A stretch of DNA of 64,000 nt from Raillietiella orientalis (lineage: Eukaryota): positions 3,534,001 to 3,598,000 of the forward strand of contig JAYWIR010000009.1 of assembly GCA_036172245.1 (NCBI GenBank). Reading direction: 5' to 3'. The translations under genes and the position numbers were made by a program. Positions 10,900-64,000 of the stretch are shown one piece after another. Numbering within the stretch: the first letter of the stretch is position 1; the number at the start of each line of letters is the position of its first letter. The notes under the pieces were generated by a model, which had not been told where the DNA came from, searched no databases, and worked only from the letters and a program-made list of their open reading frames with translations.

Positions 10900-11745
10900 T
10901 AAGAAAAAGCTCTAGAAAGTTCCGCCCACCAACATCTGGGTGGGTGGACAACTCGGGAGCTCATGGACGCTTCCTGCTCCGAGTGTCCTACCGGAAGGGA
11001 CTGTTGCGTTGGGGAGAGCGTCTACGAATTCCTCCGGAGAAGGTAGGGTGATCCCTAGCGGGCTAAAGCAGTGCTACCCTCCCCCTAAAGTGGGAGTAGT
11101 CGGCGATCCTTCTGTTTCATTGGGAGGTCCCCCGTGCTACTCCCGCTGACACACTGAGCCCAGATGGGCAGGTAAGCCCCCACTGCGGCAGGTGCAGAGA
11201 GAGAGCTCCTCCCTCACCTGCTCGCGGATTGCGTCGCCCTCCGCTCTTTGTAGGAACGTTTGGCCGCGTCCCTGCGGAACCCGGAAGCCAACCCCAAAGA
11301 CCCTCCTAAGCGCCTCTTGCAGTGCGATGCCCGCACGCCGACCGTATCCCTAGCAACACTGTGGTGCCTACGCGACGGGACCGTGGCTGCATGGAGCAAC
11401 CCAAGAGGAGGCCAGGACTACAGGGACGCCATCTATTTTGCCGTCCTCTTCATGAGGACAGCGTCAAGATGGCCCCACATGGGGATCTTAAAGAGGAACT
11501 TGCCGGCATCCTTACAAGAATGCAGAGGACACCCTCCAGCACCCGGTGATCCTCTCCGATCCCACCAAAGTTTTCTATATATATATATTTTTATTTTTGT
11601 TTGCCTGCCTCCCCTCTGCTGCTGTGGGCAAACGTCGCCGACCTGCGCGCCGGCTCTCGGCGGGCTCCATGCGTGACGTGGCAGCGCCCCACCACCCGCA
11701 TGGAAGGTCGCTTTTATCAATGAACACCCCGGAGCAACCGGGTGG
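10900..11745 (+). mobile_element. L1/Tx1-like LINE 3' relic, subfamily B
   Basis: Frameshifted LPLKW..FHW..C..C....PHLL.DC zinc finger, FMRTASRWPH motif, T-rich 3'UTR, terminal hairpin caccccggagcaaccgggtg (11725-11744). Confidence 0.8.
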
Positions 11746-12733
11746 GACGCAGGCGGCTTCCCAGCGCTCGGCAAGAGGATGCAGACTGCAGCCGATTCCA
11801 AGACAAATACATGCAGGTGCACGGCGCCAGCGCCGCTCTTCAGATCCGTCCAGCATTGGCCCAGAGCCCTCTCGTGAGCCCGTGGGAAGAGAGTAGGCCG
11901 CCGGGGCGCTTGCCGAGATCCACCAGCACGGGGGGACACTCCCGAAGGTTAGCTTCTGCCTCCGCTCCTTGTCCCGGCGGACTTGATGTGTGCCCCCGGC
12001 GACGTGTGCCCCCTCGAACGCGCAGAGGAAGGGGGCGTGGAGAGGGAGGAAGGGATCGACCGACTTCCCGGCTCCAGAGGGACTGAGCAGCCTTCATCTT
12101 GGCCCCGCCCAAGGGAACCCGAGAGGCAGTCCCTGCGCAGCTCCCGCTGGTTCTGAAGCCGAGACCCTAGTCGCTCACTTGAGCGTGTCCATGGAAACGT
12201 CCTCGGGGACGGCTCCGCGCCCGGACCCCCTACCGGAGAAGCGGTCAAGGGTCGGCAGGGAAGGTTCGAAGTAAACAGGCAACCAGCACGTCTCGAAAGA
12301 GCAGCTACTGAAAGCCTCTTTCGAAAGGGGGATGCGGCCAAGAGGTTCCGCTCTTGGCCGGACGTCCCAACAGCAGGGGGCCGAGGCGCCTCGGAGCGCC
12401 CCACCGCCAAGGTCGCTTGCAGTAGAAATCTAGAGAGAAACTTTGTACACAATCGCCTGATATTTTTCCTTGAGTTGACGCCATCGGCTGCGCAGGCGAT
12501 GGCGCCAACGTGTTGGCTCTGACAGCGTCAATAAATTGAAATCAAATAACTGCACAGAAAACCCTCGAGCATTTCCGAATCAGAAATGGACGGTGCGACA
12601 CTCACCATCTCGGGGAAGGGCGGAGTATACCGTTCACTCCTTTCCTGCGGAAGATAATAAACCACAATTTTTAGAAACCGCACTTTTGCCGACTATTGAT
12701 CCCAATGCCTTGGCAAGATATGCTATAGATTGA

Positions 12734-12799
12734 TTCTATAAATTTCTCATTTCTTGCGACAAAATCGGTTTCACAACTGAGTTCACCACGATTTTCAGC
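12734..12799 (-). pseudogene. tsf: Elongation factor Ts fragment (conserved CETDFVA motif), Wolbachia-like
   Basis: AENRG-ELSCETDFVARNEKFIE matches the EF-Ts E.NCETDFVA.N signature. From memory, Wolbachia EF-Ts reads ...ENCGVLVELNCETDFVARNEKFIE. Confidence 0.7.
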
Positions 12800-13072
12800 C
12801 GCGTTTCGTGGTAAATTTATGGCAATCATTCTTTTAGATACAAAAAGTATAAACCGTACAGCAGCGCGAGCTTTTACAAGGGCATCAATTACTTTTTCCA
12901 CTTCTTCATCTACTTTTTCATAATCAGTTTCTTCATGATCAGCCTCATGCTGATTTATGGAAAAAGCAGCATCTGTACCACAAATACTACAAAATGAAAG
13001 AGGAGAGTTCGATGGATAGCAAATGGGCATAGAAATTTCATCTGTCCCAATGGGAAAAACGGATCCGCCTGA

Positions 13073-13111
13073 AATTTCATTAAAATCAACGCTATCAAGA
13101 AAAATTTCCAT
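13073..13111 (-). pseudogene. tal: N-terminal fragment of a short-type transaldolase, Wolbachia-like
   Basis: MEIFLDSVDFNEI resembles the transaldolase start motif M.(I/F)F(L/I)D(S/T)...EI. From memory, Wolbachia reads MEIFLDSVDLNEI. Only 13 aa. Confidence 0.5.
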
Positions 13112-14739
13112 GCTACCCATGTGAAATACACAGCGTACGGTACAAACTTACTGATTAGGATAATTTAATTGCATGTTCGTCCTTCCGCTGCCACACTTCA
13201 AGTGGAGTCGTGTGGTGATGACTCATTAAATGCTTTAGTACATGTACAGCCGAAGCGTGTAGCCCGGATGGTGGTTCGTGGCGGCGGCCGCCGGGTCCGG
13301 CAGGTGGTCCTGGATCCGCCCGGGGCGCCTCTGGGGTAGCCGGGAAGTGGCAGTCGGGGCGAGTCGCGGGCAGGCGACCGCCCTCCGCGGCCCTGGAAGC
13401 GCACTGCTCGGGCGGGGGTGCGAGCCGTGCACCTGCCCGAGCATCTCTTTGCCCCCGCTTCCCGGTCTCCGTTGAGCTTCCAGCCCGCCTGCCCCCAGGA
13501 AGAAGCCGCGGCTGCGGGTGACTCCCTGGCCCTTCCCAATGGCGATTTTCAAGGATTTGTTCCACCTAGTTGCGGAGGCAGGTCGCCTCCACCCCAGGGT
13601 GTTCATCCCTTCAAGAGACAGCCACTAGAGTCTGGAACTAACGCGTCTCCCATGGAGGACCCCGTCCTGGAGGTGCTCTTCCCGTTCGCGAGGGGGAGCG
13701 GCAGGAGCTGTCGGGAACCTGCTTCCGCTGTCGCCATCTGCGCAGAGAGAGATGAGTTGAGTCTTCATTTCGATGAGGAGAACGAGATAGCAGCAGTGCG
13801 CGCGGGGCCGCTTTTCAGCCCTTCCGACGAACGTTCGCGGATCCGGCAGAGCCGGAGACTCTGAGGGGGTGAGCACGAGTCCAGAGGCAGGTGGTTACTC
13901 CACGATGCCGCTTCCCGTGCTGAGTCCCTTCTGCTCCCTCCTCCAGGGAAAGGAAGAGCCTGCGATCCTTCCATCCACAATTGTGTCGGTCGAGGAAAGT
14001 AGTAAGCGGAGCACCGTCGTCCTCAGATTTCACCTAGGCCACGGGTTCACATGGACGCAGACGCGCTTTCCTGCCCCTAGATCTCTGGAGGACGGCGGAA
14101 GATAAACAGAAATATGCGGGTGAGGTATCCGGAACGGGGCCATAAGGGAGAAGGTGTGACAAATCGGAGGGAAGAGTGGGTGGAGGTGGTAGATGGGATA
14201 AACTGGAGCAAGGGAGAGGCATGAAATGATTTAGAGATGGAATAGGAGGGGGGGGGGGACAGAGATGCTAGGCGGAGGTGGTGAGGGATCGGATGGGCGT
14301 AGCAGACTTCAATAGGGCTGGGGGAAGACTGTAGGATAGCGAAGAGAGGAAATGGGACGGGAGGAATTCGAGAAAGTGGCGAAGTCGCGGTTGGGGCAGA
14401 AATGGCGTAAGGGCAGTGCAAGGGGACTGTGGGATGGGCGCAAGAGGAAGTCAGGAGGCAGGGTCGGAGCGGAATCGAATAGGGGAGGGGAAGGAGCACG
14501 ACCCTGGGCACAAGGAGCACGCGCAGCCCTTCCCTACTGGAACAGGCTGGAACATGCGCGCACATCCGCTTCTTCGTAGCGGCGGCTGGGAAGGGGAGTT
14601 CGTGGGTGATCGCCCTTACTTCGGGCGCAATCGACCCCACCTCAATCCTTCCGGCTGATCCAAGGCGGAAGGGTGGTTGCGAAGCCGTCCAGAGCCCATG
14701 TTTGGCCAATGCAGCAGCATAAAGGGAATCCTAGAGCGG

Positions 14740-16412
14740 TACGTACGCTTCTTCTATGGGAAGGGAGGCGGATCCCGAATGGCCCGCGCCCCGTGAGTGG
14801 GTTTGCCCTTTCCCCTCCCCTGCATTGCGCCGGTGCCCAGGGATTGGCCGCTCCGCGACCTCGCCCGGAGGCGGGGGCCGCTCCTTCTGCTCCTGCCGAT
14901 CAGCTGATGCCTCCGGTCGAGATGGCTCCGGAGAAATTGGACCGCTTGTTGCTTCAGTGAGGTCGGAGCTCCCCTGTCGCCAACGTGGCATCCCCTGTGC
15001 TGCCCTTTCCCGTGAAGCAGACGGCTTGCTTTCCTGTTTCGCATACTTCCGTCAGTACCCTTCAGTTGCGATGCCTCGGTTCCAGTCCATCCCATCACGC
15101 AGCTGACGGCTCGCAGTCCTGAGATATCTCTTCAGCTATCAGTCATACCAGGATGTGAAATTTGCGCACTGTGAGCTCCACCACCCGGAGAGTCGACTCC
15201 TTCCTTGCGCGCAGTCCACGCATTCTCATCCACTGCGGACTGCACCGGCGGCAGGTGGCCACGCTGGCTAGGAAAAACGGATGCATCTCGTGCCGCCCCG
15301 CGAACGGTAATCCTGGCTGCAGGAAACCGTTCGCACGTGTGCGGGGATCCAGGAGCCAAGCGCGGAACAGGTACGACGTTTTCCAGGCGCAACAAAAACT
15401 GCACGCTCCGGGAGATCCTGGAAGATCCCGTGGAGAGAGTGCGTGGGCAAGCAGAACTCCCCTCGCCGCTGCGCAATCCTCCCTTAGGGAGCACGTGGGC
15501 AGCAGCCTTACAGTTAGATGGGAGGTCACTGAGGAAATCTCTGGAAGAAGAAAAGGACTAGGAAACGGGCCACTCGCCGACGCTGCAGCCCCGAGTGCTC
15601 GATCTCGTGGACTTTTGCGCTGGGGCGTGCAACTGGGTATTCCGGAAAAAGAACTGCAGCGGCCCCCGGCTCTCACGAACACCCGTACTCTCCCCTCGAA
15701 GTGGCAGGAGTCGGCGTTGATGCTGCTGCACGGGGTCCTCGCGTGCAACGCCCGCCGGCATCATTGGACACGGGAGGGAGGGGTGGACGCGAACTGTGCC
15801 AGGTGCGGGGAGCGGGAATCCCTCCCGCACCTCCTAATGAACTGTGTTGCCCTTCGACTGCTTTGGGGACACTTTTCCGCGACCCTTGAACCGCCGGTGG
15901 CAACGCCCGAGACGTTGGAAGGCGCCTCTTCCTGCGCGACCCCCTCACGCCGGCCGCATCTCCAGCAGCACTGTGCTTCCCACGTGGCAGGACCGTGGCT
16001 GCATGGAGCAACGCCAGAGGAGGCCACGACGACAGGGATGCCATGTATTTTCATGTTCATTTTGATGTTCATGAGGACAGCGTCAAGGTGGCCCCATCTG
16101 GGTGGCCCCATAAAACAGGAACCTGCCGCCATCCTTACAAGGATGCAGAGGACGCCCTCCAACACACAGTGATCCCTTCCCGATCACCCCATCTCCCCCC
16201 CTTTTTCAACTGGATGTTTTTTGTTTGACTTGTTTTCCCTTTTGTTTGTTTTCCCTTGTCCTGTGCTTCCGAGGCGACCCTGCTGGCCTGCGTGTCAGTT
16301 CTCGGCAGGTTCCTTCCCGTATTTATAAGTAACGTGGCAGGATCGAGCGTTCTACCACAGACGTGTATGTTTATTTTTTTGTCAATAAACTCTTCAGCGT
16401 GACCGGGTGTTA
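14740..16412 (+). mobile_element. L1/Tx1-like LINE 3' relic, subfamily B (longest B copy, 5' limit uncertain)
   Basis: ORF 15162-16172 contains LPSKWQESALMLLHGVLACNARRHHW...NCARCGERESLPHLLMNC (zf-RVT-type) and RWPHL. The 3' end is aataaac...gcgtgaccgggtg (16384-16409). Near-identical to 29285-30033. Confidence 0.85.
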
Positions 16413-16749
16413 ACCACCTGGAGGGTCGTGAAAAAACAAAAATTGGAAACGCAGGCAAGCACCCAAAAGCTAGAGGCAGTTGAAAGTGTCCTACGTCAGC
16501 CACGCGAGCCACATCGTCCGGATGTGGCTCGCGATGCAGCACAGAGGATGAGGACGGACGGATGGTAATCAAACGGGCAGCTTTCGAAAGCAACAGACCA
16601 ACTGCTCTTCCCCAGCTCTAGATGGCACAACGTGTTCCTCGGTAAGTCACGCTGCGATGTCGCTCTCGGACTGCTCCCTAGATGGCACTGACAGCAGAGA
16701 ACCCCAAGTGCCCGCCTTTCTAGTGAAAAACAGCTTGCTTTCTATTTTT

Positions 16750-28987: not shown

Positions 28988-30035
28988 ATGCCTTCCCCCT
29001 CCGCCCCTTGCTTTTTGTTTGCCCATCTCCATGAAGCATTAGGAAGCGGACAAAGGACATCCCCCGGATCATCCTCTGGGGCAAAGAGAGGTCCCGAGTC
29101 CACCTAAAGGGCTGTGTGCTCCGCGCCGGGACGGTGGCCTAGGGCTTCTGACGCTGGAGCTAATGAAGCTGCAGCTCCTATTTCGGACGCTTGTCCTTGG
29201 GGCAAAGCTCTGGAGCGCCAGCTGGCGCCAACCTGCATGTCTTCTCGTCCAGCAAGCCACCGGCAGCGTTGGACTCGCGTAGTTCCTTGCGCGCCGTCCA
29301 CGCAGTCTCATCCATTGCGGACTGCACCGGCGGCAGGTGGCCACGCTGGCCAGGAAAAACGGATGCATCTCGTGCCGCCCCGCGAACGGTGGTGCCCGGT
29401 CTCAGGGAACCGTTCGCACGTGGGCGGGGATCCAGGAGCCAAGCGCGGAACAGGTGCGACGTTTCCCAGGCGCAACAAAAACTACACGCTCCGGGAGATC
29501 CTGGAAGATCCCGTGGAGAGAGTGCGTGGGCAAGCAGAACCTTCCTCGCCGCCGCTCAATCCTCCCTTAGGGAGCACGTGAGCATCTCCAGCAGCACTGT
29601 GCTTCCCACGTGGCGAGACCGTGGCTGCATGGAGCAACGCCAGAGGAGGCCACGACGACAGGGATGCCATGTATTTTCATGTTCATTTTGATGTTCATGA
29701 GGACAGCGTCAAGGTGGCCCCATCTGGGTGGCCCCATAAAACAGGAACTTGCCGCCATCCTTACAAGGATGCAGAGGACACCATTCAGCACACAGTGATC
29801 CCTTCCCGATCACCCCATCTCCCCCCCTTTTTCAACTGGATGTTTTTTGTTTGACTTGTTTTCCCTTTTGTTTGTTTTCCCTTGTCCTGTGCTGCCGAGG
29901 CGGCCCTGCTGGCCTGCGTGTCAGTTCTCGGCAGGTTCCTTCCCGTATTTATAAGTAACGTGGCAGGATCGAGCGTTCTTCCACAGACGTGTATGTTTAT
30001 TTTTATATCAATAAACTCCCCGGCGTGACCGGGGG
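28988..30035 (+). mobile_element. LINE subfamily B copy with internal deletion, 21-bp TSD
   Basis: TSD tccaccagtgcc(t/g)cacccgaa at 28967-28987 and 30036-30056. IILWGKERSRVHLK / LCAPRRDGGLGLLTL is the L1/Tx1 post-RT motif. Terminal ccccggcgtgaccgggg. Confidence 0.9.
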
Positions 30036-31529
30036 TCCACCAGTGCCGCACCCGAAGAGGCCAACCAGCATGATCTAGCTGGCGGGACTCGGAACCCATC
30101 TCCCGGAGCCGATTGTTCCCTGGGTGGGATTCGAACCCGCAGCGCTTGGCGACACGAGCAAAGACCGCAGCCTCACGGCCGCCAGTGTGCATCCATTCTC
30201 TCACCTCCCGCTGCCGTTCAATCTTTCTGCTAGCATTCGCGGACTTGGGACGGATTCCCAGGGGACAGTTCCCATGCCCAGAGGGGTCCGCCCCCGCGAG
30301 CGTGGAACGAGAGGCGCAAGCAATCGCGTCGTCGTTGCGTGACGCTTCCCGGGAGTGCGAGAGACGCAGGGCGCGGAGATGAGGAGCAGTTCGTCGAACC
30401 CTGGCACTCGTGACGCCTCGAGGTGGGGCCGTGAGCAGTCCTGCCGAGATGGGGGACCCCTCGCCCGACCGTCTCCCAACGCCTTCCGGAAGGATAGTTT
30501 CGCAGCCGGACCCCTCTTCCTCCTCCTTTTCCTGCTCCCCTCTATTCGCTCTCCCCGATCTTCGCCCAGCTTCGGGAGTGCGCCCAGCTTCCCGAGAAGG
30601 AAGTGCGTGCGGATGCTTCCCGGATGACGCTCTCGTGCCAAGCGGGAAGACGCGGCTGCGAACGCGCGCCTTGGGATAGCCGGCAACCTCCACGAGCGAT
30701 TCCACGTTCCTCCTGTCCTGTTCTTCCCCCCCTCCTCCTCTTCCTCCTCCTCCTCATGGTCTCCCGGAACGATAGCCTGCCAAAATCATCCGCCCAATGG
30801 GAGACGGCGCTCCCATTATGGGCTACCGTTCCTCGAAATGATGAAACCGCCAAAATTAGCGTCGCGACATGAGGGTCCCTAAAGCAGAAACGGAAAGCCG
30901 GGATGCTGACACGAGGCGGGAAGGCATTTTATTCTTCCCAAGCTGTCCCCATGAATTGAACCCGACGCCTCCTCCCTGATTCCGCACCGGTTGGCGACGA
31001 AACGAGCTCCCTTCTTTTCGCGGCCCTTCCTCGCTCGCCTCCTCCCTGACGCTTCCAGACTCCTGGTCTCCTCCCTCATTCCTTCGCGGATGTCACGTAA
31101 GGGAATGTCCGTCTGGACAAGCCGGAATTCCCCCTTTCGCGCTGAAGTGGCGTTTCTGACGGCCCGAGAGGCAGCGGCGAAGGCTTTGCCCGGTGGCTGA
31201 CACTTCGGACCTCTGTCCGCTGCGCCAATGAGGTGCCGCCCGGACCACGCGTGCACAGCCTCCTATGCGCCGGGACGACCGACCACGTGGAGCACCTCCT
31301 GAGGATGACCCCGCGGTTTCCAGGCAGCGAGAGACAGGATGCAACTCGGGCCTTCAGTAGGAGTCGGTGCCCCGGAACGGCAGTCCAATGCTCCCTGTCC
31401 CTGGATTAACTCAAGAGGCAGCGCTGGGAGGACCACGACGAAGGGAGGAGCTCGGATTTCGGGAGCCGCCTTTCCCAATTGCATGCAGGGGGTGTGACCT
31501 CGTAGTGGGAGCCACGAAACTGCTAGACC

Positions 31530-32661
31530 GGTGGAAGACGGGCCAGGTGGCCGACGCGGGGCACACAGGACTGCTTCTCTGGACGGGATACCTGGACATC
31601 CCGGCGTCGGCGATGGTGACCTGGCCAGATTTCTGCCACCCCTCAGGTGGCAGCACGGAGAAATAGTTTGGGTGCCCGTGCCAAGCCTTTTTTCCGCAGC
31701 CGTAGGGCCACCAGCGGGAAGAAAAACGGGAGAAAAAAAACAGCAGTGAGCAACCGGCGGTGTGGATGACTTCGTAGGAGGAACAACGAAACTGGTGGGG
31801 GCCGGTGGAGGGCCAGTTGGCTGACGCCCGGTGCCTGCGCTAAAGGGCTGCAAAAGGCTAAGGGTTCCCTGCTAAGGGTTCTCCGCTGAAGGGCTGCTTC
31901 TTTTAGAGGAGAACCCGGACATCCCACCGTCGGGAATGGCGATCCGTCCCCTCGACCTGGACACCACCGTGCTCCCCCCCCTTAGATGGCAGTACGAAGA
32001 AGAAGCCTTGCCTGCCGCTGGTTGCCGCAGGTCGTCCCGCGCGACCGGCGCCGGCATGGCCGGACGAGGAGAGGCACCTCTCAGGACTGCACCAGTCGTG
32101 GGCGACTCCGAACTTCCACGCAGCTGCTACTGGGCTGCTGTGGCGACCTCTGCAGAGCGTGAAAATGTCTCGCGGCTGCCGTACTCCGTCCCAGAGACGC
32201 ACCGGAAGAGACTCTTTGGCACTGCGTCACGCGGGACGGACTTTTGCCCGCTTACTCACTCACCCGATCCAGTGTTGCGTCTGGAAGAGGATCGTGGTGT
32301 CTCCCGGAACACACAGGAGGGGAGCGTCAGTAGGGAGAGAAGACTCGAATCCGCGGTAGCGAGAAATGCAGCAAAATGGCCGTTCACGAAGGGTGGAGCC
32401 AAGGAGGATGCCAACGGCATCTCACGCAAATTGCACAAGACGCAGAGGGTCCTCCATTCCCATGAAGGAAGACTTTGACTCTCTCTTCCCACACATTCCC
32501 TTCCTGTCCTCCCACATAGCCAGCCTCCTGATCGGGGACTTTTTCTCTCCTTCCCCTTGAAATTTCAGAGACGTCCAGCGGATTACCAGCTAGCCGCGTG
32601 ACCTGTTTATTCGCCGTTGTTTGGCAAGCAAACGCCTCGGGGCAACCGGGTGAGAAAAAAA
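31530..32661 (+). mobile_element. L1/Tx1-like LINE 3' relic, subfamily E (includes two diverged copies of one segment, ~31570-31660 and ~31890-32000)
   Basis: LPPLRWQ motif occurs twice, followed by a degenerate zinc finger, an AKWPF motif and the terminal aaacgcctcggggcaaccgggtgagaaaaaaa. Confidence 0.6.
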
Positions 32662-32799
32662 GGAAGGGGCGTAGGCATCGGCGAGGGAGGCAGGGCGTAT
32701 CACTGGAAGGATGCGATCCGGGAAACGACGCAGTGCCGAAGGGACCCCAGGTGGGCCGCACGCGCATGCGGAGGACACAGCCACACGCAGCAACAGCTC
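32274..32799 (+). repeat. 0.5-kb direct duplication, copy 1
   Basis: Matches 35604-36129 at offset 3330. Identical from 32299 except for one substitution near 32785. Confidence 0.95.
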
Positions 32800-33689: not shown

Positions 33690-35279
33690 CCCATCATGGC
33701 ATCGTAAGGAGAGAAATAGCATCGTAGCTTCCTCTTAGGGATAGCAGAAATGTTCCATGTGGCTCCATGGGAACCCTCGAAATGCTCAGTCCAAAAGACA
33801 GCAAAGATGTTTCATATGCCTTTCATATGGCCCTCATTTTCGAGGGTGAACTTGTCCGCGGAAGGTCACGTGAAAGCCGTGCTGAAAATCCCAGGGGTAG
33901 GCTGTTGCTCTCGTGTAGCTGCATGAGACGCTTGTTAGGTCGTGTGTGCTAAGTAGTTGTGCGTTTGAGAACGGAGGCAGGAGCCTGAGATGCAGGGAAC
34001 GGTGAGGTGCTGGGAGGGCTAAGGAGCCCATGGTTGCCAGCGGAGCGCACCAGGGAACGGAAGCCGCGATCCACTGTCCTCGACGTGTACTGGAAGCACT
34101 CCTCGAGGACAGTGGATTCCCAGCGGGATTAATCTCCTCGAGGACTGTGGTCTCGGTCACCTGAGGGCGCGGAGGAAATGAAGGCTGGGAAGATGTTGGA
34201 GAGACCTTCTCTCAATCGGGTGGGCAGACTTCCTCCCATACTAAACGTGGATACAAGGCTGAGGCGTGTGCCGGGCGCAGAGCACGGGTCTCCTCCAGCT
34301 AAGGTGATCAGCGTTCAGGAATGCAGCACCGTCCTGAACCGCTGAAGCAGATGGTGGTGGTTTCTGGAAAATCCACGTGGACGCACGTTTTCCGCAGCCG
34401 AATCTGAAAGGAAACAAACTGTCCGCATGCTCATGTGGGTCATCCTCCCCATGACTTTCCTATCAGTGAAAATCGAAAACGGCGCACCTCATCCGTCACT
34501 CTGAGGGGTCATGGTGTTCAGGTGGTCGAAGAAGAGGAGGATAAAGACGTTCGGTTTCACACTTGCGGTATCATCCACTGCCCATTGCAATCGGACGTGG
34601 AAACAAACTGCTTTTCAGAATTCATCCTTGGATTCTTTCCCGCAGCCAAGAACAGTGCTCACCGGACCATTCTGTGCTCAAATGGTGTGAGTAAAAGACA
34701 GAATGACTGCTAGTCCTCGTTTAGACGTGGTTTTCTTTCTCCATCGGTGGATTCTCAGCCAGCATTATTTGTGCTCACTTCCGCGAATGCTAAGTACGTT
34801 CTGTACAGTGTCTGCGATGTCAGGGGCCATTCGTCTCCGTCGCACGAACGTCTTTGGATTCTGTTCGCGTTCCGGCCAAGAGTTCACTTGGCCGCGACGG
34901 GCTCGCATGATCGGAAGAGAAGCTGCGAAACCGTTTCGTCTGGCGATTCCGTGCTCTCCCTTATTGCCGTACGAGCTGGTCCAGGGATTCTCTCCAGCTA
35001 AAGCGGAGCTCCAAACCTGCTCACGGCTGGGTCGCTCGCACCACCGCCTCCACGGTAAACCGGTTTATTAATAGTAGTGAATTTGTACTTTTCAAGACGG
35101 TTTGTACGAGATTAAATACAAATTAATAATTGTTCTCGTTTCGGCACGTGAGACAATTAAACCGATAGAGCAGAACGTATTTGCTGCGCTGCGCATCCCA
35201 ACTACAAGAGCCAGGAAATTATTACGGATGGTTTTCTACGAAGAATCAACCTGAATAATGGTTGGTTGCTAAGATACTG

Positions 35280-35545
35280 ATAGTATTCATCTAGCTGTGT
35301 GGAAATTCATCACGAGTTGTTCTTCTCTGTTTAATGTTGCTGAATTTATCTGGAGGATTTACTTGGCCCTCATTACCAGTGATCATCTGATGGCTAACTG
35401 CGTCCGCTTCATTATCTTCCCTACGCATCAGCTTGTATTCATTAGCTTGTGTTCCGTGCACCCAGGAGGAATCCCTTTTGGATCTGTTAGACTTTTTGTA
35501 CAGCTTCTGAAGATAATTGTAAGATCTCCTCCCTTGTAGGGTTCC
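35280..35545 (-). pseudogene. Possible LINE ORF2 linker relic (I/R1/Jockey-type)
   Basis: The minus strand reads RRSYNYLQKLYKKSNRSKRDSSW, resembling the YK..IR..KR.SW motif between the endonuclease and RT domains. Confidence 0.25.
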
Positions 35546-35603: not shown

Positions 35604-36129
35604 GTTGCGTCTGGGGGAGGGTCATGGCGTCTCCCGGAACACACAGGAGGGGAGCGTCAGTAGGGAGAGAAGACTCGAATCCGCGGTAGCGAGAAATGCA
35701 GCAAAATGGCCGTTCACGAAGGGTGGAGCCAAGGAGGATGCCAACGGCATCTCACGCAAATTGCACAAGACGCAGAGGGTCCTCCATTCCCATGAAGGAA
35801 GACTTTGACTCTCTCTTCCCACACATTCCCTTCCTGTCCTCCCACATAGCCAGCCTCCTGATCGGGGACTTTTTCTCTCCTTCCCCTTGAAATTTCAGAG
35901 ACGTCCAGCGGATTACCAGCTAGCCGCGTGACCTGTTTATTCGCCGTTGTTTGGCAAGCAAACGCCTCGGGGCAACCGGGTGAGAAAAAAAGGAAGGGGC
36001 GTAGGCATCGGCGAGGGAGGCAGGGCGTATCACTGGAAGGATGCGATCCGGGAAACGACGCAGTGCCGAAGGGACCCCAGGTGGGCCGCACGCGCATGCG
36101 GAGGACACAGCCACGCGCAGCAACAGCTC
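35604..36129 (+). repeat. 0.5-kb direct duplication, copy 2 (LINE E 3' end plus ~140 bp flank)
   Basis: Matches 32274-32799. Confidence 0.95.
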
Positions 36130-39937: not shown

Positions 39938-42199
39938 CAGAAGTGAATCGCAACGCTGCACGCGTGGTTTCCCCTGGAACTGTTAAGAAAATAGAGCAAC
40001 TAGAGGAGGCATATTCTATACCACAAAGCCAAAAAAAAAAAGGTCAACATACCAAGGTATAGTTTGAAACCAACTGGGACGGCAAGGACGGTGAGTGACA
40101 GGTTGGCAGCAAGTGCAGGAACGCCACCGTTTCCAATGGATCATGCATGTGGCGCAGACAAGCTACCGTATCCGGTGGCTCATATGGCGCAGGCAAGCTA
40201 CCGCGTATCACTGAGGTAACTGCTGGGTGCCTTGGCCAGTGGGCTCAGAAGGAAAAAGGCCTCTGAGACGGACATCTGGCATCTTGAAGCTCAGGCAAGG
40301 CTGAGCTGCTCGAAAAGGCGAGTTTGTTCGCCATGAGTGCATCCGAAAGGACGGACGCGGCCGACTTGGTGTATCTTGCGCTTGAGGACTGCCCAAACAA
40401 AAATTTCCTTTTGCATCTTCGGCGATCGATAAGACGGTTGATGTCACAAAGGCAGCTTAGCTGGTTTTTCCGAAAGGAATGAAGACGGTAATTGTTTCCG
40501 AGGACGTGTTTTCTTTTGAATTTACTACCACGGGGAAGGATTTATTCGCAGGAGCGGAATCGGCATCACCAAAAACCTACCTCGTCTTATGGAAACGGTG
40601 TGGGTACAGCGAGAGATGGAAGTCCATCAACGTTTGTAAAAATAATGACTTGTCGCGTTACCGGAAGAGAAATTGAAGTTCAGCGGCCCAAACCCAAAAA
40701 GTTCATTCTTGCGCCTCTGTATTATGCATGAAAGGCACTTCCGTGCCCGATGGCTCAACCATTAACGCAGGAATATGTGGGGCAAGGGGAGCATGTGAGT
40801 TCCATTGCAGATTCCGATCTCGGCCGTCGTTAACTTGAGCGGTTTTTATCTGCATCGGAGTCAGAACGCATCTCCTGCATTATCCCCAAGCTAGGTGACC
40901 CGGCAAAGGTAAAATGCCGAATCCTCCCAGGGAAGGGATGCAATTGTTCCTGGATACGAAAGGTCATCCAGCTTCCGGAACCGGAAGCAAAAACCGAAAA
41001 AAGAGGGGGGGGGGGATGGGTTGCGTAATGTGGCTTCTCTTGCACATACCACTGCCCAGGAAACCGAACCGAGTATTAAACTTGGAAACGGTTAATCATC
41101 CCGCTCCATGGAAACCTTGCAGACTTTTGAGCAAAACTTAAATTGGCGGCAAAAGCAGCTTCCGAAAAATGCCTCGACGTAAGTTCCCCAGGTTACAATC
41201 AATAAATCCAGCATCCATTATGAAATATAGGACGGAAAACGTCAGAAGTATCGAGAAGAATTTGTAAAGTTTGGAGTTTTAAATGGAACCGAGGAGGAAC
41301 GGTGATTTCTGTACCGCCAAGAATAGCTCCTTCAGATTTTCGGTGTCGCAGCTAATGGATTTCCGAGCTGACATTTCACTTGGAATTAAATTCAGTGCAC
41401 GTCGGCTGACGGAGTTTCCCATTGGAATGAGTGTTTTCAGAGGGAAATGCGCTTTCGCACGAGCGTGTCCTCGAAACACGTGTGTTCTGCTTGGAACTCG
41501 TTCGAATGCCCGCGAGCAGCCTTGCTGGAGTGCACATACACGTGTACATGTGTGTGACCGCGGAGGAGTGGGCAAACAGGAGGAGGCGAGCACATCGAAG
41601 AGGGGGGGGGGGGAAGAAAAAAAAAAAACCCTTCTCCGCACTTCTGGTTCCCGGTTCCGTTCCCGCAGGAGCAAACTTCGCGCGAGGCGGACGCGGAAGT
41701 CCCTCCTCGCCCAGTCGCATCCCGAACCGCTCGCAGTGGCCAACGGGAAGGTGAACTTTTTTTTTTTTTTTTTTTTGCATACCCCCTCACATGAAGGGTG
41801 CGCTCCCCCGGGGAGGAAATAAATTGAGGACGCCGAAACAGAATAAAATTCACTTCCTCCGGAGCTCTAATCTTTCCGCTTCCTTTGCACCATCGTTTTG
41901 TTTCCTGTTTCCATGGATGCAATTGGTCCCGTCAAAAGAAACGCATTCGTCTGTTTCTTTTCTTCATTTTCCTTTGTGTTCATCCCAGGCACTCGCAACC
42001 CGAGCAAGGGCCCAACTAACCCAATAGTTGGTCCGGGGAAATTAAGGGGATTTTCACATAGCAGAACAGGAGAAAAGGAAGGAAAGGAAAGATCACGAAG
42101 TGGGGAAAACGGGCCGTTCCGAGATGGAACCGTGCAACGCCGCTGTTCTTCGCTGTGTCTTCGATTACGACCCGCCTCTCACATCTGCAACAGGCACGC

Positions 42200-45960: not shown

Positions 45961-46859
45961 CTTCACAGGAACAAGATCTTCAGCAGGTGGACTTCTGAGA
46001 CGAATTGAGCGACAGCATCTCGCCGAAGGGTCTCTGCGACATCAGTTGACGACCGCATTGTTTTCGTGGTCGAGTGCGACCCGAAAGACGAACTTCACGC
46101 CTGTGGTAGGGCGCCAGTGCAAGTGTTTTTGAAAATGAACACGTGATCTAAGTAGGTTGAACTCTATTTTGTTCAAATTTCCTCACATAGAAGCACAGGA
46201 GAGATACGTTTTCCAAAGACGAGAACAATAAAGCTGAAACTATGGAATTGTTTAAATAGATTAGGGGTCAGCAAAACCCTACTCAAATCCTAATTTAAAT
46301 GGATTAAAGATCAGCAAAAAAATTGGCAAACACTTTTCATCTTTTTGTTTAAGGGTAAAATGACTGATATCGTATTGTTCTGACGCCTTCACATAAATTT
46401 TACATCTTTCATAAAATCTATCACATGAAATCAATCACAATCTGTCCGTGTGTAACCCATAAGGCTCGTATAGCGCGGAATTGTATCACCCGGAATGTAG
46501 CCCCCGCGTTATACGAGAACCAGCTGGATTTGAGGGTAGCCTTTACGCTTCGCTTGCAAAGGAGCATCTTCCTTCTTTTTTTTTTTGTTTTTTTTTTTCA
46601 GGAGCAATTGAAATGGGACATGTGGGGTGGCGGGATCCGAGAAAGGACAAAGTGATGTGAGAATTGAACATTCCTAGAGGCAGGCGGAGCACATCGGAAA
46701 AGAAATGGCGTCCTGGAACGCGCAGGACCGTCCCTAATGCATGATGAGCCTTCGAAAAGAGCAGTAGAAGGATTTGAAAAGGGGCGGTACTTAGAGAACA
46801 GCACGAGATCTCTCCATTCGCCTGTGCGAAATTACTTCGGAAAACGGGATGGTGACGCA

Positions 46860-60500: not shown

Positions 60501-62429
60501 CTCTCTCCGTGGTCGCTCGCCAGCCACGGAGCATGCATCGGTCCAAATGATCCTTCCATCGTTGCCCCCGCGAAACTCTTCTCCCGAGGACTGATTTCGT
60601 AATAACAGCAGCGCCTCCCGGAAGTTTCGGTACTCGCCCGCAACACGGTTGGAAGAATGTAGGTCTGCAGAGTCGTTCGCAGCGCCTTCCGCACACGGAG
60701 GAATGGGGAGGGGAGAATGGAAATGCCAATTTTCTCGGTTTTCACAGTTCTAAAACATTCGATGTGCCGAGTTTTCCAAAGAAAAGAAAAAAAAGCTGAT
60801 TTTTTTTTCAAAAAAAAAAATAAATTCCTTCGGTCCTCCACTCATGAAGCTGTGGATTCGTTTCCCAAGCAGAACTCAGTCGCCTGGATTGACACTCGAT
60901 GATGACCTCGAACCTTCCACACCCTCGAAGTCACCCGTTTCACTTGGTTTCCTTCCCCACTCCTCCTTCCTCTCTCTCTTTCCCCTCCCCTCTGTTTTGC
61001 TCCCTCCAACTCTTCACGACGCGCAAGGAGAGACATCCTGCTTGTCCACTGCTTGGATCCGGGATAAGGGAGCGGTCGCTGCCGCGGGACAGATGAAGAG
61101 AATCGGCTTCCCCCCCCAGACACGTAAAACGAGACACTTCGGGCCCTCCCTCACGTAGTAGGAATCCCGGAAGGAGGAGAGCCTGCCCGCAGGTGCGCCT
61201 GCATTCCCAACGACTCACAGACGGCGGAAGCTTCGGCGCCGTATTGGATTCCTGCCGCTGCAGACCTGAGATGACCAGCCCAGAGCAGACCGGCCTGCAG
61301 CGATCTGCTTGGAAAGATGCCAGGACGTCTCCCCGTTCTTTCCCACTCGCTTTCATCCACCCCCTCCTGCAGCGTCCATGGAGGCGTTGCTCCTGCAAAG
61401 TCCCCTGCATGGCGGCGCCGAACCCTGATGACGGGCGCAGCAAGCGCTTGGACGCAACGAACTTCCCCCCAATAAGGCCACCTTAAAAGGATCAGCGACG
61501 AGTTCCTGAGACTCCTGGTGGACAAATTCTGCAGGTCGCACGCGCACTAACACAGGAGGATACTGGGCGTCTTCCGGTAGCGAGCAAATCGGGGTGACTT
61601 GCTGGGTACACTGCCTAGGACAGGCGCCCCCTCCGAACCGCGAAGCTCGGACCCACTATAGCCCGGAGGCAGAAAGGCGGCAAACCTTTGGCCTCGCTGC
61701 GGCGCGCCGAAATCCTAGCAAACAGGTGCTTCGCTGGCCGACGAAGACTCCCGCGACCGAACACAAGGACACGGATTGAGCCGCGACGATGGCGCCAAAT
61801 GACTGCCTCTTCTCGTCCCGGATCGCATCGAAGCCTTCAACATCCAATTCGTAAGAAGCCGCTATTGAGCTCGTGGCTGACCTGCGTGTCACGACATTTC
61901 CCTCCAGAACCGACAGAACAACCGGGCACCCTTGTAGTGTCCATTTTGATGTCTTCGCGTTTTGCGTGCTCGATTTCAGAAAAAGCTCTAGAGTGACTTT
62001 CCCATCGAGGATTGCCGCAGGGCATTGATTGAAGATAAATAAATACACAGTGCTATTCTAAGGAGCAGCACGTACCGGCCCCAAACTAAAGGGACTACCC
62101 TCGATAGGAACACAACTAGGGAGATAGGGAACAAAAGGAGAAAATATCAATTCCCTGGCTTGCCCAGTGACCGACCCTTGTACATCCGTCGTGAACCAAA
62201 CCTCCATGAACAACAAGGAATATGTATTTATTTATTTGATTCCTAATGTCCCCCTTGATCCATCTGTACTGAGCGTAAGTTTCTGGTACTGGCTGTCGAC
62301 TTGCGTGCCGGCGTTCTCCGACTCGCTCCTCCAGGGCACGTGAACGCATGTTTACCTGCTTTGAATAAACTCCCCAGAGTGGCCAAGTTTAAAACAACGG
62401 GGAAGCGCTGCAAAATAAAGAGTACATTC

Positions 62430-62830
62430 CTCCATGTAGTCCCAGAGCTTCTAAGTTAATCGCGACTCCTTCAAAGCTATTTATTCCGTAGCAACTTGGC
62501 ACCCCTGATTCCAGATTGCTATTCGAAGCAAGCAACGGGGTTACCTTCGAATCGATAGACTTGGAACGAAAGTCTGCTCATGATCTTCATTCATACCTAC
62601 AACCAATTATCTGCTGGTGGAATGAATGCAACAATGATGATATTACTGATACCCGGTGTGAACGGCGTGCAGCTTCGATTTCAATTCATTAATGGCGTGT
62701 TAGTCGTTGAATACGTGAATATCGTTTGTAGGTACCTACCTCACCATTCGTTTCTGTTCCTTCTGCATGTGTCTAAGAATGTATCTGGAAGTTTCTGTAA
62801 ATAGAGGAGAACAGTTCTCAGGATTCGCCA
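62430..62830 (+). pseudogene. Possible decayed CR1/L2/Jockey-type RT C-terminal region
   Basis: Motif-like pieces occur in order across frames: SPRASKLIATPSKLFI (VPQGS-like), SRLLFEAS (LFADD-like), YLQPIICWWNE, FINGVLVVEYVNIVCRYL. Confidence 0.35.
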
Positions 62831-63498: not shown

Positions 63499-64000
63499 AC
63501 GTCAAAGTGAGAGAAAGTGGCGGCAGGATCATGGCCGCCCCCATGGTTGCTTGTCTCTCGCGATGAGGAGAAAGCGCGCTCCTGTAGAATTCGATGCTGG
63601 TTGTAAATGTAACTCGAATTATAGCCCCGTGATGGGAAGCTATTCCTTCCGAAGCAATTGCTTTTTGGGGATTTCAGGCAAAAAAAAAAAAAAGATGGCG
63701 GTGGTGATCTCCTTGGTTACTTGGTGTTCCGACTTTCCGATCCTATTGTTGGCGCATTCATTGTTGAACAACGCTGGCTCCAATTTACGCTTCCGGTTTT
63801 TGTTTTTTTTTTTGGCTTTTTCCTTTCTGAGGAAAATTGCTCACTGCTGCGCGCCCGACGTTTCCCGAAGAAAAGTTTTCGGGAAGATGCGCAGACACGC
63901 CGCGCTTTCAGACGGTATCTCTGGGTCAGCCCCGCACCAGAAGCATGCCGGAAGGGCCTATTCTCCTTGAGAGCGAACGAGGCTGCTTGGGAGCTCTTCA

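Follow-up and report, generated by a model that had tools for sequence, protein, structure and literature searches.

Transfer of Wolbachia DNA to a host genome is usually described as the movement of contiguous blocks that decay later. Patchworks of short DNA stretches are known from other settings: in biolistic and array transgenes, T-DNA junction filler and polymerase-theta templated insertions, 30–100 nt stretches from separate parts of the incoming DNA are stitched together with microhomology, and Helitrons and Pack-MULEs capture short parts of unrelated genes as patchworks from which chimeric open frames can arise. For nuclear Wolbachia transfers (nuwts), the account of Brugia malayi includes two neighboring nuwts that derive from separate regions of the wBm genome (PMC3849323), and fossil Wolbachia fragments that carry numerous substitutions and indels have been reported from Dictyocaulus viviparus (PMC4046930) and likewise in filarial genomes (10.1101/2025.03.17.643741). 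Complex or mosaic numts, nupts and numins, as one report describes them, combine several non-contiguous donor fragments, bear hallmarks of NHEJ and contain fragments that met during or before integration (PMC6215612). Here we describe an island of Wolbachia-like DNA that we read, with a probability of roughly 0.7, as a complex, mosaic nuclear Wolbachia transfer, end-joined from many small fragments and now a non-functional fossil.

The original prediction placed an AT-rich patchwork of Wolbachia-like gene pieces at 12650..13160 of the window, by which we mean the whole 64,000-nt stretch of Raillietiella orientalis DNA that was analysed. The compositional contrast was borne out, with 37.2% GC in that interval against 62.6% and 62.4% in the 1-kb flanks and 57.9% in the whole window. 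The location also stood, but the limits did not: the Wolbachia-derived mosaic spans 12422–13241 on the minus strand (~0.8 kb, 41.0% GC) and consists of 11 assigned pieces of 39–112 nt each (mean 67 nt, sd 20), plus one 46-nt segment without a source match (Table 1). In the assembly sequence, the contig continues beyond the island as host-like DNA (~62% GC), for 12 kb on one side and 50 kb on the other, and the window around it contains many dispersed and inverted repeats. Wolbachia matches were confined to 12422–13237, with none at E <= 1e-5 to five genomes in the remaining ~63 kb, and the window's two other AT-rich stretches matched 2 of 60 Wolbachia genomes (trivially, over 21–24 nt) and 0 of 60. 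Pfam gave no match among 92 window frames of at least 170 aa or among 23 frames from those other AT-rich stretches, and neither a tRNA nor an Rfam family was found in the window. One window frame weakly resembles LINE zf-RVT clusters.

Table 1. Features of the island, listed along the minus strand, with the closest Wolbachia DNA and the family of the source open reading frame (ORF).
Feature	Position	Strand	Content	DNA identity	Source ORF
Piece A	13192..13237	-	thyX fragment, sense, 46 nt	89% to L133 (genome G002), 83% to L129	TIGR02170 thyX, E 1.3e-62
Piece B	13073..13187	-	atpC-tal intergenic (non-coding) spacer upstream of tal and first ~13 codons of tal (fsa), sense, native frame	85% over 102 nt (L138), 82% over 112 nt (L139)	TIGR00875 fsa; ATP synthase epsilon subunit
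Piece C	13011..13074	-	hflK fragment, antisense, 64 nt	83–86%	TIGR01933 hflK, on opposite strand
Piece D	12957..13010	-	prophage-family gene (phrog_29996) fragment, antisense, 53 nt; accessory locus	85–89% in 5 of 60 genomes, 83% in a sixth	PHROG, E 6.5e-302
Segment E	12911..12956	-	46 nt, no assignable source		
Piece F	12872..12910	-	fragment of 530-aa Wolbachia ORF, sense, native frame, 39 nt	87% to G002 (E 2.8e-7); weaker in G023, G006	
Piece G	12805..12870	-	mutL fragment, antisense, 66 nt	91–93% in several genomes, E down to 2.4e-21	MutL, TIGR00585, E 1.4e-156; several copies in some genomes
Piece H	12727..12801	-	tsf (EF-Ts) fragment, sense, native frame, 9-nt internal deletion	94% over 51 nt (L156); 82% over about 83–84 aligned columns (L147)	TIGR00116 tsf
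Piece I	12663..12734	-	multicopy prophage-family gene (phrog_16274) fragment, sense, out of native frame	86–90%, several copies per genome	PHROG, E 4.6e-278
Piece J	12579..12663	-	sucB fragment, antisense, frame-breaking indels	77–85%	sucB, NF004309, E 8.1e-160
Piece K	12514..12574	-	tsaB fragment, sense, 61 nt	87–90%	TIGR03725 TsaB
K-L stretch	12491..12513	-	23 nt, GC-rich		
Piece L	12422..12490	-	multicopy non-coding Wolbachia intergenic repeat, 65–69 nt	84–90%, up to ~10 copies per genome	intergenic in L158 and L160
Stop-free frame	12671..13147	-	158 codons, 149 from first ATG; crosses B, C, D, E, F, G, H and part of I		

The 11 pieces all match Wolbachia, each at a locus of its own, with identities of 78–94% and E-values that lie between 1e-7 and 1e-25 in single genomes. 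With E-values of 1e-10 to 1e-25 per genome for the island, and 59 of the 60 genomes examined from the genus matching it, the short matches on which the original prediction hung are far beyond chance. Non-coding Wolbachia DNA is present as well (the atpC-tal spacer and the multicopy intergenic repeat), along with two prophage-family genes. Among 120 tsf loci of diverse bacteria that share one 12-residue motif, the best DNA matches to the island are those of Wolbachia. At the level of sequence comparison, these matches show a Wolbachia derivation for the 11 pieces.

Both genes that had been named from short peptides were correctly recognized. The tal-start peptide shares 13 of 14 residues with the Wolbachia fsa/tal product, and the DNA agreement (82–85% over 102–112 nt) extends beyond the coding part, while the EF-Ts resemblance is supported by Pfam PF00889 (EF_TS) at residues 122–143 of the island ORF (E 6.5e-5) and by 94% DNA identity to Wolbachia tsf over 51 nt. 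The PF00889 score of 23 bits lies under the 27-bit gathering score because just 22 residues are present, and the match to TIGR00116 reaches 14 bits against a cut-off of 104; judged by these scores, Piece H is a fragment of tsf, not an EF-Ts gene. We rejected a contiguous EF-Ts N-terminus, to which tblastn and blastp alignments extending the tsf match to residue 77 had pointed, as the DNA of that part aligns to mutL in antisense (92% identity over 66 nt) and not to tsf. The third piece, earlier taken for natural coding sequence without a name, has a core (10 of 13 residues) that belongs to the 530-aa Wolbachia ORF of Piece F, which has no Pfam, NCBIfam or PHROG match. Segment E has no convincing DNA match in the 60 genomes (best 79% over 47 nt, E 1.2e-4) and no protein-level match, and Piece L has no Rfam match. 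Between Pieces K and L, ungapped source extensions fail and gapped alignments can carry K or L into 12491..12513, so this stretch may be either filler or a decayed continuation of one of the two.

The sources of the pieces are scattered over the bacterial chromosome. Positions were tabulated in 13 genomes (G002, G006, G007, G014, G021, G022, G023, G030, G042, G043, G052, G056 and G058), where distances of hundreds of kb separate the source loci; in G001, a fragmented assembly, the pieces fall on separate contigs, and across all 60 genomes not one HSP bridges two pieces. The expectation of a non-contiguous concatemer of tiny fragments from unrelated loci is thereby supported and strengthened, though the count of three pieces was too low, with at least 11 now assignable. 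Some neighbors in the island have sources that are closer together: those of J and K lie 2.5–3.3 kb apart in G023 and G002, in mixed orientation, those of B and C ~12.3 kb apart in the same orientation in G002, and those of G and H 17.7 kb apart in G014. The proximity of J/K and of B/C hints that at least some pieces came from one larger fragment.

These neighboring sources, the 2–6 nt of microhomology at several junctions, and the fact that ~10% neutral divergence could predate joining if it accrued in a nuclear copy are what one would expect if a large, ordinary Wolbachia insert had arrived first and was later cut down by deletions, inversions or a chromothripsis-like event, or if short stretches had been copied from a nuclear insert elsewhere by microhomology-primed template switching of the polymerase-theta or MMBIR type. 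However, colinearity holds for at most one adjacent pair in any genome checked, and we estimate that chance alone gives about one pair closer than 15 kb per genome among 28–45 pairs. Orientation is mixed, J/K included, and to leave eleven remnants of 39–112 nt with hardly any spacer, a minimum of 10 precise large deletions would have been required, together with inversions, while the rest of the 64 kb is without Wolbachia-like DNA. We consider such a history unlikely.

Relative to their source genes, six pieces are in sense and four in antisense orientation (binomial p 0.75). Pieces abut or overlap by 0–6 nt with filler of 0–2 nt, except at the 23-nt stretch and the 46-nt Segment E, and the ~10% divergence blurs the exact breakpoints. 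Three origins had been proposed beforehand, namely multi-fragment end joining, a nascent chimeric gene and a spacer-like record of symbiont sequence; the first fits best, as orientation is random and the junctions appear to carry 0–6 nt of microhomology. Other routes to such a patchwork fared worse. Ligation at restriction sites, as in Hi-C or Pore-C libraries, was rejected when no common 4-cutter site (GATC, CATG) could be seen by eye at four junctions (B/C, F/G, G/H and J/K), and the antisense orientation of 4 of the 10 pieces makes reverse transcription with template jumping on mRNAs unlikely. For capture by a Helitron or Pack-MULE, a scan of 11000–15000 for repeats found no inverted or direct repeat at the island borders that would mark element ends.

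How the island has decayed bears on its age. Bases private to the island, that is, absent from all Wolbachia homologues, occupy 75 of 728 aligned sites (~10% divergence), although the comparison sets are small (1–9 distinct Wolbachia sequences per piece) and some of these changes may be differences of the donor lineage. Private changes run from AT to GC 49 times and from GC to AT 9 times, compared with 42 and 26 in a Wolbachia-versus-Wolbachia control (Fisher p 0.005). Sorted by codon position in the source genes, they are spread 22/20/24 (p 0.83), compared with 16/14/35 in the control (p 0.002), where the counts include the intergenic part of Piece B and the direct contrast between island and control is borderline (Fisher p 0.054). 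Indels occur in sucB, tsf and other pieces, some of them frame-breaking. The even spread over codon positions, the lean from AT to GC and the frame-breaking indels together point to an old, neutrally decaying nuclear insert and not to fresh contamination. The substitutions show an island that appears to evolve without the constraint of bacterial genes, in neutral decay toward GC.

The same data weigh against an artefact in which degraded Wolbachia fragments were ligated during library preparation into a chimeric long read that was then assembled into the contig. The piece sizes (67 nt, sd 20) resemble degraded DNA, and a junction-spanning 33-mer had no match in metagenome contigs, both of which would suit this account. 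Yet the island is ~10% away from every one of the 60 Wolbachia genomes, with even codon positions, AT-to-GC bias and multi-base indels, whereas fresh DNA of a living symbiont would differ mainly at third positions and raw long-read error consists mostly of single-base indels, not substitutions. With host DNA running on for 12 kb and 50 kb on either side, an artefact is highly improbable.

The stop-free minus-strand frame of 149 aa was found as predicted, with the quoted peptides at the expected positions. It begins at the native tal start codon, with the upstream spacer in place, and holds Pieces B, F and H in their native frames, but the pieces do not all share one strand and frame as had been supposed: 4 of 10 are antisense, the frame crosses three of these (hflK, the prophage-family gene and mutL), and it ends inside the sense Piece I, which is out of its native frame. 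A frame this long arose in 0.95% of 20,000 simulated random Wolbachia patchworks (P = 0.0095). The argument that a common strand and frame would be unexpected is weakened by the three antisense pieces and by Piece I. A 158-codon frame is unusual for a random patchwork (P ~0.01) and counts against our preferred explanation. No homologue of the frame was found in 5.8 billion proteins (31 near-length and 296 longer candidates), a database size at which short pieces are invisible. Because ~1% of simulated patchworks show such a frame, no homologues were found and antisense pieces are crossed, the open frame is probably incidental.

A functional element, either a young chimeric gene encoded by the 149-residue frame or a mosaic retained in a repeat-rich cluster to supply small RNAs directed against the symbiont, would account for a frame longer than 99% of simulated patchworks that opens with the native tal start and spacer and keeps three pieces in their native frames, amid surroundings full of dispersed and inverted repeats. 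We judge it very unlikely: beyond the missing homologues, three of the pieces in the frame are antisense nonsense translations, the substitutions across the island's source codons give no sign of constraint, and the frame was singled out post hoc because it is open. A more speculative proposal is that the host itself made the mosaic, by a process that samples short symbiont DNA and archives it in a repeat-rich locus. The archive would serve as a spacer-like record from which small RNAs against Wolbachia or its phage are produced, or as raw material for a new chimeric gene with the native tal start as its own. A uniform piece size (67 +/- 20 nt), the two prophage genes and the ~1% open frame are compatible with such an archive, but we give it very little credence.

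In the mosaic transfer that we favor, many short double-stranded Wolbachia pieces (~40–110 nt), drawn from sites throughout the chromosome of a strain that carried prophage, would have been linked one after another, in random orientation, by classical or microhomology-mediated end joining. The linked pieces would have become fixed where a host chromosome rich in GC and in repeats had broken, and the insert would then have drifted neutrally toward the GC-rich composition of the host. We infer that the joining took place at or before integration and that the donor DNA came from degraded bacteria. If micro-mosaics of this kind are common, gene-based or long-match screens would miss them and nuclear symbiont DNA would be undercounted; they would also show directly by what route degraded bacterial DNA gets into the nucleus and through which repair pathway it is captured. 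The insert would further be a molecular fossil of a past association between this host lineage and a Wolbachia with prophage, regardless of whether the host has Wolbachia today, and its decay toward GC a small natural measure of host mutational or conversion bias.

Comparison with the known systems sets out what is distinctive about this locus. Unlike Helitron or Pack-MULE captures, the island showed no flanking terminal inverted repeats or other element ends in the repeat scan of 11000–15000, and all of its assigned pieces are bacterial, none from the host. Scrambled transgene integrations are experimental or somatic events, whereas the island would be an old germline event with a natural donor. 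Like mosaic organelle insertions, it contains multiple non-contiguous donor fragments; its donor is a bacterial endosymbiont and not an organelle, and its fragments are more numerous and smaller than what we take to be usual for such insertions. A search of the full-text literature, with subscription journals and supplements outside its reach, found no published account of such a micro-mosaic. As with the nuwts of arthropods and nematodes, among which short degenerate fragments are known, the island would be Wolbachia DNA in a host chromosome that decays as a pseudogene-like fossil. In contrast to them, it packs at least 11 fragments of 39–112 nt from loci across the genome into 0.8 kb with almost no spacer, and would represent a different form of entry, in which about a dozen 40–110 nt fragments of bacterial chromosome and prophage were joined before or at integration.

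The AT-rich island resolves into a tiling of short Wolbachia matches with sharp bounds, each to a different locus, both in the five Wolbachia genomes searched first and in the 60 genomes of the same genus searched subsequently, 59 of which match the island. GC content is 37.2% in 12650–13160, compared with 62.6% and 62.4% in the flanking kilobases and 57.9% across the whole window, in accordance with the original prediction of an AT-rich island in GC-rich DNA, and the predicted peptides lie where expected in the minus-strand frame. When 120 tsf loci, several of them titled Wolbachia, were drawn from public genomes with a degenerate EF-Ts motif pattern, the top DNA matches to the island were the Wolbachia-titled ones. 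Two AT-rich control stretches were compared with the same 60 genomes: 46100–46620 gave two trivial matches of 21–24 nt and 35040–35480 gave none, and therefore the island matches are not caused by AT-richness. The rest of the 64-kb window had zero matches at E ≤ 1e-5 to five Wolbachia genomes. Source ORFs were given gene names by scanning them with NCBIfam, Pfam and PHROGs, and the eleven pieces with an assigned source have a mean length of 67 nt (sd 20). The original sighting is confirmed, and the proposal of a concatemer of tiny fragments from several Wolbachia loci is supported.

Pieces of the island, ordered along the minus strand
Piece	Position	Strand	Source and orientation	Identity
A	13192–13237	minus	thyX, sense	89%
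B	13073–13187	minus	atpC–tal spacer and tal start, sense, native frame	82–85%
C	13011–13074	minus	hflK, antisense	83–86%
D	12957–13010	minus	prophage-family gene phrog_29996, antisense	83–89%, in 6/60 genomes
E	12911–12956	minus	unassigned	
F	12872–12910	minus	530-aa ORF belonging to no known family, sense, native frame	87%
G	12805–12870	minus	mutL, antisense	91–93%
H	12727–12801	minus	tsf with 9-nt deletion, sense, native frame	94% over 51 nt
I	12663–12734	minus	multicopy prophage-family gene phrog_16274, sense, out of frame	86–90%
J	12579–12663	minus	sucB, antisense	77–85%
K	12514–12574	minus	tsaB, sense	87–90%
L	12422–12490	minus	multicopy intergenic repeat	84–90%

The source of piece L is an intergenic repeat of ~65 nt with up to about ten copies per Wolbachia genome (at 1501–1563 and 1501–1564 of source loci L158 and L160, and at many sites in genomes G056, G049, G054 and others); it has no Rfam family and could represent a small dispersed Wolbachia repeat not described before. 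The mutL stretch of piece G occurs in 2–4 copies in some genomes (G056, G052, G022, G058), which suggests mutL paralogues or copies in mobile regions.

The source loci are scattered: in Wolbachia genome G030 they lie at ~352, 853, 303, 785, 197, 1217, 1017, 90 and 628 kb, with similar dispersal in G006, G014, G042, G043, G021, G007, G058, G056, G052 and G022. The sole proximity seen more than once is J–K (2.5 kb in G023, 3.3 kb in G002), while B–C (12 kb, G002), A–F (12 kb, G002) and G–H (17.7 kb, G014) are each close in a single genome; by our estimate, chance would place about one pair <15 kb apart per genome. Laying the sources of both neighboring pieces across every join, as the original prediction had advised for junction microhomology, showed that pieces abut or overlap by 1–6 nt (B/C 2 nt, G/H 3 nt, H/I ~6 nt, I/J 1 nt), although ~10% divergence blurs the exact breakpoints. 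Filler is scarce, the exceptions being segment E and a 23-nt stretch that separates K from L. A repeat search found neither inverted nor direct repeats at the island borders, and the immediately flanking sequence is single-copy within the window. The pieces are randomly oriented, come from all over the genome, meet at tight junctions and vary little in size, all of which fits multi-fragment end-joining capture, the first option originally put forward, in which a chromosome break in the host would have captured many small double-stranded Wolbachia fragments. The main rival explanation, that a larger insert was shattered later or that template switching took place on one, we consider improbable.

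The island also carries marks of decay. Seventy-five of 728 sites hold a private base, meaning one present in none of the 1–9 distinct Wolbachia homologues per piece, which are small sets that may not represent the donor's lineage. These changes run AT-to-GC in 49 cases, GC-to-AT in 9 and otherwise in 17, whereas a control with each Wolbachia sequence in turn as focal gave 42, 26 and 6 in 2818 sites (Fisher p 0.005 for direction). By source-gene codon position the island changes divide 22/20/24 (p 0.83 versus uniform; part of B is intergenic) and the control changes 16/14/35 (p 0.002), a contrast that is borderline when compared directly (p 0.054). Several pieces contain multi-base indels, some breaking frame, and every piece is higher in GC than its Wolbachia homologues. 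Taken together, the even codon spread, AT-to-GC bias, indels and raised GC are the pattern that neutral drift leaves in a GC-rich nucleus, and we infer from these sequence patterns that the island is such drifting nuclear DNA. Neither DNA of a living symbiont nor raw-read error fits the direction, codon-position, indel and composition pattern, and because of this decay, library chimerism as the origin of the joins is very unlikely.

The minus-strand open frame (12671–13147) is stop-free for 158 codons, with 149 residues from its first ATG. Its only Pfam match covers 22 EF-Ts residues (E 6.5e-5; 23 bits, below the 27-bit cut-off), the NCBIfam tsf model scores weakly, and the whole frame gave no match in searches of 5.8 billion proteins. 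Of 20,000 random patchworks assembled from Wolbachia loci totalling 162 kb, with piece lengths matched to the island, 0.95% had a frame of at least 158 codons; when the island itself was shuffled, the rate was 0.18%. The shared frame, originally deemed unexpected, is thus rare, but while the tal, F and tsf pieces are read in their native frames, hflK, phrog_29996 and mutL are read backwards, the stop falls inside out-of-frame piece I, and the feature was picked post hoc. Lacking homologues and any sign of constraint, the frame is best read as unusual in length yet incidental, and that it has a function is very doubtful.

The surrounding DNA (58% GC) shows no methylation-type CpG depletion, with CpG observed/expected at 0.56–1.14 per kb, mostly 0.8–1.0. 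The region is repeat-rich, with an inverted duplicate (20146–22023/25923–27800; 1,878 nt, 99.9% identity) and dispersed repeats (32274–32799 versus 35604–36129, 98.9%; 15956–16416 versus 29582–30042, 96%). Among the window's frames of 170 aa or longer, none carries a Pfam domain, and no tRNA genes or Rfam families were found in the window. A 337-residue frame at 15159–16169 (+), itself without a Pfam match, is probably a decayed retrotransposon fragment, a weak indication being that its nearest Atlas clusters carry the LINE-type zf-RVT domain in a minority of members. Besides the island, the window has six AT-rich stretches (46101–46600, 35051–35450, 41101–41400, 60701–60950, 62451–62800 and 63651–63850; minimum 31–41% GC), of which the first two are the controls that showed no Wolbachia similarity; the six yielded 23 frames, none with a Pfam match.

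The locus is an already known type of event in a new structural form, and would matter more if such mosaics prove common or the locus is expressed. We found no description of a comparable Wolbachia micro-mosaic in full-text searches covering the main texts of open-access papers. Known nuclear Wolbachia transfers include short degenerate fragments (PMC3849323; PMC4046930; 10.1101/2025.03.17.643741), and Brugia malayi carries two side by side from different genome parts (PMC3849323). The closest formal analogue of the island is found among organelle insertions, which can be complex and mosaic and joined by NHEJ (PMC6215612).
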